DNA of 11,925 bases from a virus. Its lineage: Duplodnaviria; Heunggongvirae; Uroviricota; Caudoviricetes. Below the pieces are notes generated by a model. It had not been told where the DNA came from. It was given only the letters and a program-made list of their open reading frames with translations, and made no database searches. The stretch lies in IMG/VR virus record IMGVR_UViG_2778261461_000004. One strand, 5' to 3'. Within the stretch, counting starts at the first letter, position 1. Every line of letters starts with the position of its first letter. Position numbers and translations under genes: made by a program. Positions 1-3,745 of the stretch are shown here, piece by piece.

Positions 1-1284
1 TTACAGACTTCTGGAAGGTTGCGCAGCTCTTACAACACGCGGTTGATCTTCCGCAGCGTCTTCCAGCGCACTTAAATCACGGTCTTTCACCTCTGGCATT
101 TTCAGCGCAGAGATTAAACCAATCACTGAATATGCCATGATCATAATGGCGATCGGATACCAGGATTCCGTCATGGTGCAGAAAATACCCGCCAGGATAG
201 GACCAAAACCGGAAGCGATAAGACCACCAATTTCTTTAGAAATAGCCATCCGGGTAAAGCGGTTTTTACAGCCGAACATTTCTGCCATGGTAATGTTTTC
301 CAGAGCAAATAATCCCAGCACCGCACAGTTATGAATCACAATCAGTGCAACCATAATGGTGCTCGGGGCATAGCTTTTATCTACAATGATAGAAAGCATT
401 GGCCATGCCAGCACAATCGCGGAGGTATTCATAATAATATACGGGATCCGGCGACCAATTTTATCGGATAACCAACCAAGGAACGGAATGGTCATAAAGC
501 CGAGAATCGAACTGATCATCAATGCATCTGTTGGAATTGCTTTGTTAAACAATAACGTCTGCACTAAATAGCCTGCAAGGAAAGTCTGAATTAACCCGGA
601 GTTACCCGCCTGACCAAAACGCAGCCCTGTTGCCAGCCAGAAGGATTTGCTCTGGAACATGCTACCAGCAGGTGCAGGTTTTGCTGTCGGTTGGTTACTG
701 TCGTTAACCTTCTCAAAGACCGGGCTTTCTTTCAGATTCATACGCAACCAGATAGCAAAGACCATCACGACAACGCTCGCCAGGAACGGTATACGCCATC
801 CCCACGCCAGCAGTTCCTCTTTACTGAGAATGAAGAACATAAAGGCCCAGATTGCCGTTGCGCTCAAGGTTCCGCAGTTAGTTCCCATAGCCACAAATGA
901 GGAGATAATTCCGCGCTTACCTTTTGGCGCATATTCCGCCAGCATCGTACCGGCACCGGAAATTTCCGCACCTGCACCCAACCCCTGAATAATACGCAAC
1001 GTCACCAGCAAGATGGGTGCAAAAACACCAATCTGTGCATAGGTCGGTAACACACCAATTAAGGTGGTACAGATCCCCATCATGGTGATGGTAATAAAGA
1101 GCACTTTTTTACGCCCTATTCTGTCGCCCATTTTGCCGAAAATAAATGCTCCGACAATACGCGCCACATAACCTGCACCGTAGGTTCCCATTGCCAGAAT
1201 TAACGCCATTGCCGTTGATGATTCAGGAAAAAATATTTCATGAAACACTAACGCTGCGCCGAGCGAATATAACTGGAAATCCAT
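1..1284 (-). CDS. ydfJ: MFS transporter of the metabolite:H+ symporter (MHS) family, YdfJ-like; N-terminus appears truncated at the prophage junction
   Basis: 427-aa ORF with multiple hydrophobic segments and the MHS-type motif GDRIGRKK after the second helix. The ORF begins MDFQLYSLGAALVFHEIFFP, which corresponds to the conserved W-Y-D-F region that in paralogs such as ShiA sits about 30 residues into the protein, so the first part of TM1 seems missing. Stop codon is at 1..3. Confidence 0.85.
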   Translation of the reverse strand: MDFQLYSLGAALVFHEIFFPESSTAMALILAMGTYGAGYVARIVGAFIFGKMGDRIGRKKVLFITITMMGICTTLIGVLPTYAQIGVFAPILLVTLRIIQGLGAGAEISGAGTMLAEYAPKGKRGIISSFVAMGTNCGTLSATAIWAFMFFILSKEELLAWGWRIPFLASVVVMVFAIWLRMNLKESPVFEKVNDSNQPTAKPAPAGSMFQSKSFWLATGLRFGQAGNSGLIQTFLAGYLVQTLLFNKAIPTDALMISSILGFMTIPFLGWLSDKIGRRIPYIIMNTSAIVLAWPMLSIIVDKSYAPSTIMVALIVIHNCAVLGLFALENITMAEMFGCKNRFTRMAISKEIGGLIASGFGPILAGIFCTMTESWYPIAIMIMAYSVIGLISALKMPEVKDRDLSALEDAAEDQPRVVRAAQPSRSL

Positions 1285-1887
1285 AATTCACAGGTGTTTT
1301 TTCCCATCCTGTGGTTTCCTTGGCGTTTTCTAGGTTTTTTCAGATAGTTGCATTTTTTAAAAAGCATCCTAAGTTCGATCTCAGTGTCTATCTGGGGCCT
1401 ATTTCTGTCCCATATATGCCCCAAAAAAACTCCCCAACAGATAAGTAGTTTTTTCATGGATTTATGCGTAAAATCAAGAACGGCTGGAAATCATTCAATA
1501 CTCACACTATCGAAAAATTTACCAGCCAACCGCAGCACGTTCTTGCATAAGGCGTGTCTGCGTTTTTTCAACTATTCAGATACATCACTCCCATCACAGT
1601 CATTCCTCCGCATCAAAGGCATATAGGCTATATCACCTTGATATTTTTCTTTTTCAGATAAAAACTGTTATCTATGTATACTTTTAAACCCAATCCGTGT
1701 AGAGTCTCTGCATAAGATAGTTTGCAGTTGCCGCTTCAGCTTGCGCCATAAACCGCCTGATTTTTGCTGCCACCTGCTAGCATTCCTGTATACCTGAAAC
1801 GACAATGTTTATCTACGAACTTTAAAAACACCCAAGATAAAAATTGTCAACTATATCATATATAACACATTACTAATTCGAGGCTAT

Positions 1888-2001
1888 ATGAACAGCATAC
1901 TGATAATCACTTCTCTCCTTATCATATTCAGCATTTTTAGTCATGCCCTAATAAAATTAGGGATTGGCATATCCAATAACCCAGACAAAACCGATGTATA
2001 A
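1888..2001 (+). CDS. Hypothetical 37-aa small hydrophobic protein ([37 protein letters not shown])
   Basis: ATG at 1888 preceded by GAGG (cgaggctatATG), TAA at 1999..2001. One predicted transmembrane helix followed by a polar tail. Too short for the supplied ORF track. It ends 68 nt upstream of ydfK. No homology evidence available. Confidence 0.25.
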
Positions 2002-2069
2002 GTCAACATATCCTGAATCAGACATACAATATCGCAATGAAAATCAATAATATTTTAAGGAATATCTTC

Positions 2070-2303
2070 ATGAAATCAAAAGACACCCTAAAGTGGTTCC
2101 CTGCGCAGCTTCCTGAAGTAAGAATTATCCTAGGGGATGCTGTAGTGGAAGTAGCAAAACAGGGAAGACCTATTAATACCAGAACATTGCTTGATTACAT
2201 TGAAGGAAACATAAAGAAAAAATCATGGCTGGATAACAAAGAATTATTACAAACAGCGATATCAGTTCTTAAAGACAACCAAAATTTAAATGGTAAAATG
2301 TAA
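2070..2303 (+). CDS. ydfK: Cold-shock-induced small protein YdfK/YnaE family
   Basis: Translation MKSKDTLKWFPAQLPEVRIILGDAVVEVAKQGRPINTRTLLDYIEGNIKKKSWLDNKELLQTAISVLKDNQNLNGKM matches my recollection of YdfK (77 aa). AAGGAA lies 8 nt upstream of the ATG at 2070. The track's 2037 start has no comparable RBS. Confidence 0.8.
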   Translation: MKSKDTLKWFPAQLPEVRIILGDAVVEVAKQGRPINTRTLLDYIEGNIKKKSWLDNKELLQTAISVLKDNQNLNGKM

Positions 2304-2620
2304 TATAATAAACTTACTTTTTTATCATTTTTCCACTTTAACAACATTTTGCTCCACTTTTCCACGTCCAAACAACTTGAAATCTGGTTAAAATAACACG
2401 CAACACTATTCTTCTTCCTTGAGCCCGCCCGGAACTCGAAAAACAAACCAAGTTAAAGCCATTTTTCACAAAATCGATTTTGGGTCTCACCAAAAATTAC
2501 GGGGTTGCATACGCATTCGTTTATTTTCGAACGTGTACATACAAATATGCACAAAAATAATCATAATTATTTTCTGAGATGCATTATGATATGAACACCA
2601 ATTTCGAATAGAGTCTCACT

Positions 2621-3211
2621 ATGTCTCGAATTTTTGCTTACTGTCGGATATCAACGCTGGATCAGACCACCGAAAATCAACGCCGGGAAATCGAAAGTGC
2701 AGGTTTTAAAATCAAACCTCAGCAAATAATCGAAGAACACATTAGCGGCTCAGCAGCAACCAGTGAGCGTCCTGGTTTTAACCGGTTGCTTGCTCGCCTG
2801 AAATGTGGTGATCAATTGATTGTGACAAAACTGGATCGCCTTGGTTGTAATGCAATGGATATCAGGAAAACAGTGGAACAACTGACCGAAACAGGTATCA
2901 GAGTGCATTGCTTAGCATTGGGTGGCATTGACCTGACCAGTCCAACAGGAAAAATGATGATGCAAGTAATTTCAGCAGTCGCTGAATTTGAACGAGACCT
3001 TTTACTTGAACGCACTCATTCCGGGATAGTAAGAGCCCGCGGCGCAGGGAAACGTTTTGGTCGACCACCTGTGTTAAATGAAGAACAGAAACAGGTGGTA
3101 TTCGAACGAATTAAGTCAGGTGTAAGTATAAGTGCCATTGCCCGGGAATTCAAAACCTCGCGGCAAACCATTTTAAGAGCCAAAGCAAAACTTCAGACAC
3201 CTGACATATAA
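2621..3211 (+). CDS. pinQ: Site-specific DNA invertase, serine recombinase (Pin/Gin/Hin/Cin family)
   Basis: 196-aa ORF with the resolvase N-terminal catalytic motif ([15 protein letters not shown], catalytic Ser in CRIST) and a C-terminal HTH ([22 protein letters not shown]). Size and position next to a tail-fibre assembly gene match Pin-type invertases. Confidence 0.9.
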
Positions 3212-3308: not shown

Positions 3309-3745
3309 CTACGGCAGTGCTGGCCATTCAATATCCTGTGCAGTTGACGTATCAACACGGTTCAGCAATACCCGATACTTTTTCCATGCTTCCAGCAACG
3401 AGATTTCTTCCTCCGTTGCAATTTCCAGATCTGCAGCATCCTGAAGCGGCGCAATATGCTCACTGGCTACCTGCATCAGGTTGTTTTTTGTTTCTTCCGC
3501 CTCCCGGATCCGGAACAGTTTTTCTGCTTCCGTATCCTTCACCCAGGCTGTGCCGTTCCACTTCTGAAACTCCCCTTCCGGCGATAACCAGGTAACATTT
3601 TCCGGTAACGGACCGAGTTCAGAAATAAATAACGCGTCGCCGGAAGCCACGTCATAGACGGTTTTTCCCCGATGATCTTCAACGAGATGCCACGATGCCT
3701 CATCACTGTTGAAAACAGCCACGAAGCCTGCCGGAATATCTGGCG
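3309..3745 (-). pseudogene. tfaQ: Tail fibre assembly protein (Tfa) remnant, 5'-truncated
   Basis: Translation from [35 protein letters not shown] to DIEWPALP matches the C-terminal roughly 140 residues of lambda-type Tfa proteins. The N-terminal ~55 residues are absent and in-frame stop codons lie immediately upstream. No ATG is available; the track's start is a GTG at 3722 that corresponds to an internal Val of intact Tfa. Confidence 0.8.

Follow-up and report, generated by a model that had tools for sequence, protein, structure and literature searches.

ynfT, a 37-codon prophage gene upstream of ydfK: evidence for selection on a small, probably membrane-embedded peptide

Does the 37-codon open reading frame located between the end of an Escherichia coli prophage and the cold-shock gene ydfK encode a functional peptide, and what kind of peptide could it be? 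We studied this question in a window of 11,925 nucleotides (the whole stretch of DNA that was analyzed; IMG/VR record IMGVR_UViG_2778261461_000004), which represents the left end of a Qin-type E. coli lambdoid prophage. The segment 1700-2320 of the window is 100% identical to many non-K-12 strains, e.g., strain 042.

Identity and prophage setting of the frame

The frame occupies positions 1888..2001 of the plus strand in the ORF listing; it starts with ATG, ends with TAA and encodes 37 amino acids. A Shine-Dalgarno sequence, GAGG (1880..1883, plus strand), can be read 4 nt upstream of the ATG, and GAGG(A) is found in the Salmonella homologues. It should be noted that an open frame is, by itself, not beyond chance here: the first 4.5 kb of the window alone are overlapped by 47 ORFs with a length of 30 aa or more.

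In RefSeq, the CDS "ynfT, YnaM/YnfT family protein" of E. coli 042 corresponds precisely to 1888..2001 of the matching stretch, and the K-12 MG1655 counterpart is ynfT, b4748 (1632890..1633003). The peptide matches the Pfam family PF23676 "YnaM" over residues 1-37 with 96.2 bits (cut-off 27), the NCBIfam family NF041477 with 63.9 bits (cut-off 35), and phrog_35882, a PHROG without assigned function, with E = 3e-20. It is assigned to the YnaM/YnfT family by a full-length profile score above the curated cut-off, and as a 37-residue prophage product encoded just upstream of ydfK or ynaE. YnaM of the Rac prophage is identical to YnfT at the protein level, the two copies being separated solely by synonymous DNA differences, and its gene has the same position, ahead of ynaE (the paralogue of ydfK) at the end of the prophage. 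The 37-codon frame is the known E. coli prophage gene ynfT, with ynaM as its identical twin.

The first-pass annotation of this DNA described a 37-codon ORF with a plausible ribosome-binding site, and both exist as described. Its statement that the ORF is unannotated is wrong, because ynfT is present in RefSeq (ynfT/b4748), Pfam, NCBIfam and PHROGs, as well as in EcoCyc-derived gene lists, and the protein was already detected in 2018 (PMC6001520). Since the ORF had been both annotated and experimentally detected, our finding is a rediscovery; what is new is the prevalence of the module, the intact frame in all reliable copies, and a dN/dS of about 0.1 in comparison with Salmonella.

The prophage boundary lies to the left of ynfT. 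The truncated ydfJ occupies positions 1-1284 of the minus strand (ORF listing, RefSeq), and the approximate prophage/host junction on the att side was placed at 1273..1285, where phage homology starts beside ydfJ. The blastn homology to the free phage mEp460 begins at position 1273, and the K-12 Qin feature starts within the 3' end of ydfJ. To the right are ydfK (2070..2303, plus strand; Pfam PF27475, cold shock protein YdfK), which follows ynfT as its partner in the module, then pinQ (2621-3211, plus strand) and, beyond pinQ in the gene order, tfaQ and tail-fibre genes on the minus strand. The reported location of the ORF, between the prophage end and ydfK, is thus confirmed by the extent of the mEp460 homology and by the ydfK coordinates. 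In free phage mEp460 the gene order is exo-xis-int-att-ynfT-ydfK-pin, and in every context examined ynfT was found in prophages or phage-tail-like gene clusters.

Translation, predicted shape and selection

Ribosome profiling or a translational fusion had been proposed as a check of translation, and both kinds of evidence were already positive in the literature. By chromosomal SPA tagging, VanOrsdel et al. (2018) detected the exact peptide from each of its two K-12 copies (PMC6001520). The peptide is tabulated there twice, as ynaM of Rac (between ynaE and ttcC) and as the ydfJ-ydfK copy at 1632890-1633003, which is named ynfQ in that table and ynfT in the present RefSeq; ynaM and ynfQ are among 13 detected small proteins also positive in the tetracycline ribosome-profiling screen (PMC6001520). 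The SPA-tagged protein accumulates from the native locus at comparatively high levels in ordinary LB growth (PMC6001520; bioRxiv 10.1101/511675). Weaver et al. found a YnaM-SPA level higher than that of most newly found small proteins, and neither retapamulin nor Onc112 gave a peak at the YnaM start codon (bioRxiv 10.1101/511675); the duplicated Rac and Qin copies make read mapping ambiguous. A 2024 y-ome paper classed ynfT as uncharacterised, and the literature searched contained no experiments on the function, localisation, topology or partners of YnfT.

The claim that the ORF encodes a single-pass hydrophobic peptide with a short polar tail is borne out by two predictions. The best 19-residue Kyte-Doolittle window covers residues 4-22 (mean 2.52), and the AlphaFold2 model consists of one helix, residues 2-30 (pLDDT 88.7), so that codons 4-22 (1897..1953, plus strand) are predicted to encode a transmembrane helix. 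The juxtamembrane segment and polar tail (codons 25-36; 1960..1995, plus strand) were delimited in alignments of E. coli and Salmonella copies: their amino acids, including SNNPDKTD of the tail, are invariant between the two types despite 6-7.5 synonymous differences, in a part of the gene on which the searches were seeded. The conserved small residues S15, S18, G25 and S29 recur on one face of the helix. By analogy with other bacterial small membrane proteins, a larger partner may pack against, or touch, this face and the invariant tail.

We searched for homologues using YdfK as a bait, a degenerate DNA pattern and tblastn; the hits of the latter two were anchored on the tail, codons 25-36 of ynfT. 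Of 5426 complete E. coli genomes, 2804 have the ynfT-ydfK module, with one to three copies each, and a called YnaM/YnfT CDS accompanied all 60 of the E. coli genome hits sampled evenly down the ranking. Among viral contigs, the 37-codon frame is intact and equally spaced in all 70 loci that were found via YdfK alone and had upstream sequence. Outside E. coli genomes, homologues were found in the free lambdoid phages mEp460, Tritos and 2H10, in Salmonella phage 118970_sal3, which has baseplate J-type tail genes, and on large Salmonella plasmids bearing tail-like genes; the Salmonella homologues are likewise 37 aa long. An exhaustive HMMER search of 1.84 billion protein representatives yielded four matches to YnfT, all of them trivial variants or fragments. 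Because the family is extremely narrow, the comparative power comes essentially from two sequence types, those of E. coli and Salmonella.

The frame is intact in every reliable copy examined. The first-pass annotation had named, as evidence against a gene, orthologous regions with a disrupted frame in conserved surroundings, and the sole cases of this kind were two loci of the genome collection (L011 and L013), in which the ynfT frame is broken by indels upstream of apparent divergent ydfK paralogues. We considered these loci as pseudogenes and rejected this interpretation: ydfK is frameshifted in both records, too. Across the whole module, their DNA shares 96% and 92.5% identity with ordinary copies, with no better match among RefSeq complete genomes, and they most likely represent error-rich assemblies.

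Comparison of synonymous and nonsynonymous variation, another proposed check, pointed in the same direction. Against three Salmonella-type copies, with the window copy as the reference, the Nei-Gojobori dN/dS is 0.07-0.10 for the whole gene, and 0.13-0.18 for codons 2-22, which were unconstrained by any search. The differences at codon positions 1/2/3 are 4/4/14, 4/5/17 and 6/5/16, respectively, i.e., third positions hold 14-17 of the 22-27 differences. Within E. coli, where the ORF and the flanking DNA are highly conserved, ten alleles have eight synonymously variable codons versus two amino acid changes, S18G and H19Y. As the dN/dS is about 0.1, and stays low over the search-unconstrained codons, selection acts on the peptide itself; these alignments indicate clear purifying selection on YnfT, tail included. 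Judged by sequence comparison, the evidence for ynfT as a coding gene is far beyond chance.

Transcription and the link to ydfK

The ORF was said to lie upstream of the cold-shock gene ydfK, and this is correct: the two genes are 68 nt apart in the window. Across loci, ydfK follows ynfT after 68-74 nt in 117 out of 120 cases (68 nt in 102, 73-74 nt in 15). The spacer (2002..2069, plus strand) is AT-rich (28% G+C) and holds the Shine-Dalgarno sequence of ydfK, AAGGA. In one RNA-seq study, ynfT was up 5.7-fold and ydfK 5.3-fold, together with cspI, cspG, cspB, ymcE, deaD and rhlE (PMC13058169). This co-induction with cold-shock genes fits a single operon of the cold stimulon, in which ynfT and ydfK would be co-transcribed. 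Small ORFs adjacent to and co-regulated with cold-shock genes have precedents in ynfR of Qin (PMC6001520), ymcF and ymcE; YnfT has no homology to their products, and its own co-induction is known at the RNA level.

The two genes are nevertheless separable in genome comparisons. Homologues of ydfK with 55-64% identity have no ynfT-like ORF upstream (Enterobacter, plasmid-like E. coli and Salmonella contigs, and a Limnobaculum prophage), and, conversely, one Salmonella plasmid lineage carries ynfT without ydfK, the homology ending at the ynfT stop codon (three loci that represent one element). A ynfT-only match in strain PK6 was rejected as another such case, since an ISKox3 insertion lies between ynfT and ydfK in this strain.

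The homology between E. coli and Salmonella copies begins only about 55-70 nt upstream of the ynfT ATG, which implies that the promoter would be close to the gene. The conserved upstream block (1817..1887, plus strand; alignments and repeats) is presumed to be a 5'UTR and/or promoter. Within it lie the motif AGATAAAAATTGTC (1835-1848, plus strand) and a -10-like TATAAC (1861-1866, plus strand); this proximal TATAAC/CATAAT element is positionally conserved between E. coli and Salmonella and has no good -35. The promoter scan called no consensus sigma-70 promoter in 1817..1887. It did find a candidate sigma-70 promoter farther upstream, TTCAGA-18-TATACT (1653..1682, plus strand), overlapped by a second copy of the AGATAAAAAYTGT motif (1656-1675, plus strand); transcription from this site would produce a 5'UTR of about 200 nt, and in alignments the site is not conserved in Salmonella. 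Genomic SELEX peaks of RNA polymerase holoenzyme, converted from older K-12 coordinates, fall at about 1645-1747 of the window and thus span this candidate (PMC5493296). In Salmonella, an element GAACTT-N16-TCAAA upstream of the homologue is a possible sigma-E promoter. A sigma-70 promoter proposed for ydfK, TTCCCA-16-GATAAT (PMC3946193), was not retained, as it maps to 882-909 of the window, inside ydfJ and 1 kb away.

We also analyzed the potential of the region for RNA-based regulation. Positions 1398-2700, scanned on both strands, gave no intrinsic terminator; the number of promoter-like sites is at chance level (seven found versus 5.6 expected). The only antisense site that would read through ynfT, at 2079-2052 of the minus strand, has the -10 element TAAAAT, which is CAAAAT in Salmonella; this change fits the maintenance of the ydfK Shine-Dalgarno sequence instead. 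There was no Rfam family at threshold, no excess of folding stability over shuffled sequence (z = +0.14, -0.24 and -0.33), no covariation (alifold term +1.53, one compensatory pair among 45 predicted) and no cspA-type cold box, so the leader of ynfT-ydfK does not qualify as a riboswitch or RNA thermometer by Rfam, covariation or excess stability. No attenuator, terminator or Shine-Dalgarno-sequestering structure that couples ynfT to ydfK was found. An invariant hairpin pairs the ydfK Shine-Dalgarno sequence (2059-2063) with 2096-2100; it shows no variation and does not involve ynfT. The Shine-Dalgarno sequence of ynfT is accessible, with no sign of a long structured leader. Both genes are absent from the Term-seq supplements of PMC7815308.

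Probable role of the peptide and alternative explanations

The explanation that we favor, and consider somewhat better than an even bet, is that YnfT is a non-toxic, single-pass small protein of the inner membrane that belongs to a cold-inducible prophage moron and acts on a partner. An AT-rich cassette of two genes, ynfT followed by ydfK, occupies the att-proximal end of tailed prophages, lambdoid and others, in E. coli, Shigella and Salmonella; it is expressed in the lysogen and induced along with the cold-shock stimulon. In the favored explanation, the product with a function would be the peptide itself, beyond the mere act of translation. The peptide is predicted to insert in the inner membrane by one helix (approximately residues 4-22, extending to about residue 30), leaving a short polar tail, and the helix face with S15, S18, G25 and S29, together with the tail, may pack against a larger membrane-associated partner. 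Such a partner could be the AriR-like YdfK or some host protein that is conserved in both E. coli and Salmonella. Several E. coli small proteins with a single helix, i.e., AcrZ, MgtS, MgrB, CydX and KdpF, modulate larger membrane proteins. Like YnfT, they are about 30-50 aa long, with one helix and a short polar tail, and were detected only by tagging or ribosome profiling; unlike them, YnfT is prophage-borne and extremely narrow in distribution, and it has no sequence homology to any of them.

The first-pass annotation suggested that ynfT could be an upstream ORF involved in ydfK regulation. According to such a model, translation of ynfT in the leader would control ydfK, e.g., by keeping transcription from ending prematurely, through Rho or otherwise, or by stabilizing the mRNA in the cold, and the peptide would be secondary; we consider it unlikely, although it is consistent with the constant position and the near-equal co-induction of the two genes. 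In two later papers, prematurely ended "leader" transcripts of ydfK and ynaE are credited to Raghavan et al. 2011, and one of these passages has the leader RNAs binding to, or co-precipitating with, Hfq (PMC5089854, PMC4152368). The reported "leader" RNA presumably is, or contains, the ynfT mRNA. The leader of mdtJ, another on the Raghavan list, was later shown to hold a regulatory upstream ORF, mdtU. Lying upstream of mdtJI, mdtU resembles ynfT in its location within a region that is described, at least in such passages, as a prematurely terminated "leader". The differences on the side of ynfT are a strongly conserved peptide, a search for coupling structures that found none, and the separability of ynfT from ydfK. 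If translation alone mattered, such strong purifying selection over the entire peptide, tail included, would be atypical; the interval between the ORF and the ydfK start has no terminator, unusual stability or covarying structure; ydfK has its own Shine-Dalgarno sequence and is not overlapped by ynfT. The ydfK homologues without such an ORF, and the plasmid lineage that kept ynfT without ydfK, do not agree with an obligate association. A regulatory role for ydfK is compatible with a function of the peptide and is possible, but it would be insufficient as an explanation. We also consider improbable a model in which the leader transcript serves chiefly as a non-coding regulator (thermosensor, riboswitch-like element or Hfq-dependent sRNA) and the ORF is incidental or a second function. 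The short leader-derived transcripts and the Hfq co-immunoprecipitation mentioned in the citing passages would agree with it, as would the high conservation of both ORF and flanks within E. coli; on the other hand, the codon-position pattern and the dN/dS values point to selection on the protein, which is made, and the structural signs of a functional RNA are missing from the leader as analyzed above (Rfam, stability, compensatory changes, cold box).

The similarity in shape to type I toxins, also noted in the first-pass annotation, did not translate into support for a toxin. YnfT would in that case be a membrane-damaging peptide repressed by an antisense or overlapping small RNA, and we regard this as very unlikely. 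As a small hydrophobic single-helix peptide of a prophage, YnfT resembles Hok, Ldr, Ibs, TisB, ShoB, DinQ, ZorO and PepA1/PepG1, which are small hydrophobic helical peptides, often on mobile elements; it has a very weak resemblance to PepG1 (E = 0.055), the antisense promoter-like site reads through the gene, and an Hfq-bound RNA was reported, in the citing passage, from the ydfK/ynaE leader region. However, the PepG1 score is 13.1 bits versus a cut-off of 70, no toxin family of Pfam or NCBIfam is matched (YnaM is the sole Pfam hit), and PADLOC gives nothing. The search for an antisense or overlapping small RNA that had been proposed was negative at the level of sequence: there is no minus-strand terminator and no Rfam family, promoter-like sites do not exceed chance, and the antisense -10 is lost in Salmonella. 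An accessible Shine-Dalgarno sequence, with no long structured leader, also argues against a toxin. Accumulation in ordinary growth, as seen for the tagged protein, is unlike typical type I toxins and speaks against tight repression. Thus, both a type I toxin and a pure leader peptide are unlikely, because no antisense RNA, terminator, conserved structure or toxin match was found and the protein accumulates; YnfT probably does not damage the membrane. A peptide that is expressed in the lysogen and blocks DNA entry or receptor function of incoming phages (superinfection exclusion or another anti-phage activity) is a further alternative, which we judge to be quite unlikely. Its location is typical of a moron, beside tail-fibre genes and att, with a prophage or tail-like cluster in all contexts examined; it is expressed in lysogens with defective prophages, and YnfT is predicted to be membrane-embedded. 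On the other side, PADLOC has no match, the peptide hardly varies between settings with different tail fibres and phage types (lambdoid versus baseplate J-type), and co-regulation with cold shock would be unexpected for exclusion genes.

The preferred explanation, a non-toxic inner-membrane peptide acting on a partner, concerns two y-ome genes of E. coli, ynfT and ynaM, that occur in about half of the complete genomes, are under clear purifying selection, and adjoin one of the most strongly cold-induced genes. The options are now narrower: the peptide is selected and separable from ydfK, no toxin signature was found for it, and it is encoded next to a neighbor with a modeled AriR-like fold. 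For those who work on small proteins or cold shock, what ynfT does would be an incremental problem.

The neighbor itself may provide a hint. The structure model of YdfK is a three-helix bundle (pLDDT 80.6), the best PDB match of which is E. coli YmgB/AriR, 2OXL (probability 1.00, TM 0.66/0.81, 2.0 Å over 59 columns, E = 0.045); there is also a weak similarity to the YcgZ profile (E = 0.011). This modeled AriR-like fold suggests, speculatively, a link to low-temperature envelope signaling. In a more elaborate variant, to which we give little weight, YnfT and YdfK would form a two-part cold-inducible prophage device, or the ynfT mRNA would have a dual function, encoding the small protein and serving as the Hfq-bound "leader" sRNA. 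In the device version, YnfT would recruit or cooperate with the AriR/YmgB-like YdfK at the inner membrane and retune a host envelope-signaling system, by analogy with YcgZ, YmgA and AriR, which act on Rcs.

Sequence elements around ynfT, ydfK and pinQ

The K-12 gene at 1632890-1633003 is listed as ynfQ in the table of VanOrsdel et al. 2018 (PMC6001520), and its current RefSeq name is ynfT (b4748). It should be noted that this renaming can conceal earlier work from text searches.

Upstream of ynfT, the AGATAAAAAYTGTY motif is present in two direct-repeat copies (window 1656-1675 and 1835-1854), together with an inverted copy (window 1801-1814) that lies 20 nt from 1835-1848 and is 93% complementary to it. 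Of these, the one at window 1835 is the block that is conserved in the Salmonella homologues. The motif may serve as a binding site for a protein or form a hairpin in the 5'UTR. In 17 of the 18 Salmonella-type ynfT copies we found the element GAACTT-N16-TCAAA, e.g., at 3373-3399 of the locus L015, which corresponds to -62 to -36 relative to the ynfT homologue, and likewise in L016 and L021. This element, a putative sigma-E promoter, agrees with the sigma-E promoter consensus. At this spacing, the element is absent from all 102 E. coli-type copies, owing to an insertion of approximately 8 bp. Downstream, a promoter scan predicted TGTACA-16-AATAAT on the plus strand upstream of pinQ (window 2534-2561), and the sequence is identical to that of the constitutive RpoD promoter listed for pinQ and pinR by Shimada et al. 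2014.

The Shine-Dalgarno sequence of ydfK (GGAAU, window 2059-2063) can pair with GUUCC (2096-2100) in ydfK codons 9-11. This potential hairpin is invariant and is shared by the E. coli type and the Salmonella type; its paired segments show no covariation, so that the comparison speaks neither for nor against it. A sub-threshold Rfam match to the Shigella sRNA CssrB on the minus strand (window 1531-1668; 23.8 bits versus the gathering score of 76, E = 0.027) is probably due to chance.

Records of doubtful origin or quality

Genes encoding YdfK with 99-100% protein identity to that of E. coli were found on contigs labelled Caldithrix, Alistipes, Draconibacterium and Chryseobacterium (L002, L004, L007 and L010); L002, L004 and L007 also carry an identical ynfT, and L010 consists of 228 bases only. 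These findings are almost certainly the result of contamination or mis-binning. Numerous small indels are scattered across ynfT and ydfK in E. coli ECGI0523 (CP178306; L011 2711-3015) and S. flexneri SFBU0723 (CP182557; L013 2690-3010). No RefSeq genome shares these indels, and the pattern looks like sequencing error and not like gene decay.

Predicted fold of YdfK and gene contexts of its homologues

The AlphaFold2 model of YdfK, encoded at window 2070-2303 (+), consists of three helices (pLDDT 80.6). The top Foldseek match of the model is E. coli YmgB/AriR (PDB 2OXL_A; probability 1.00, E = 0.045), with TM-scores of 0.66/0.81 and an rmsd of 2.0 Å over 59 columns at 15% identity, and the NCBIfam profile of YcgZ matches YdfK weakly (E = 0.011). 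The small regulators YcgZ, YmgA and AriR share a fold to which the prophage protein YdfK may also belong.

In E. coli PK6, ynfT and ydfK are separated by an inserted ISKox3 transposase element (L215 2519-4258); both ORFs are intact, and pinQ contains an internal stop. The distant ydfK homologues (L204-L212; 55-64% identity) occupy other gene contexts. In Enterobacter and on E. coli/Salmonella contigs, they adjoin a gene for a 2860-aa protein of glycosyl hydrolase family 94 (GH94), and gnsAB-family, anti-restriction or ynfU genes occur in the vicinity. In Limnobaculum, their neighbours are a gene for a BON-domain protein and a phage lysis cassette.
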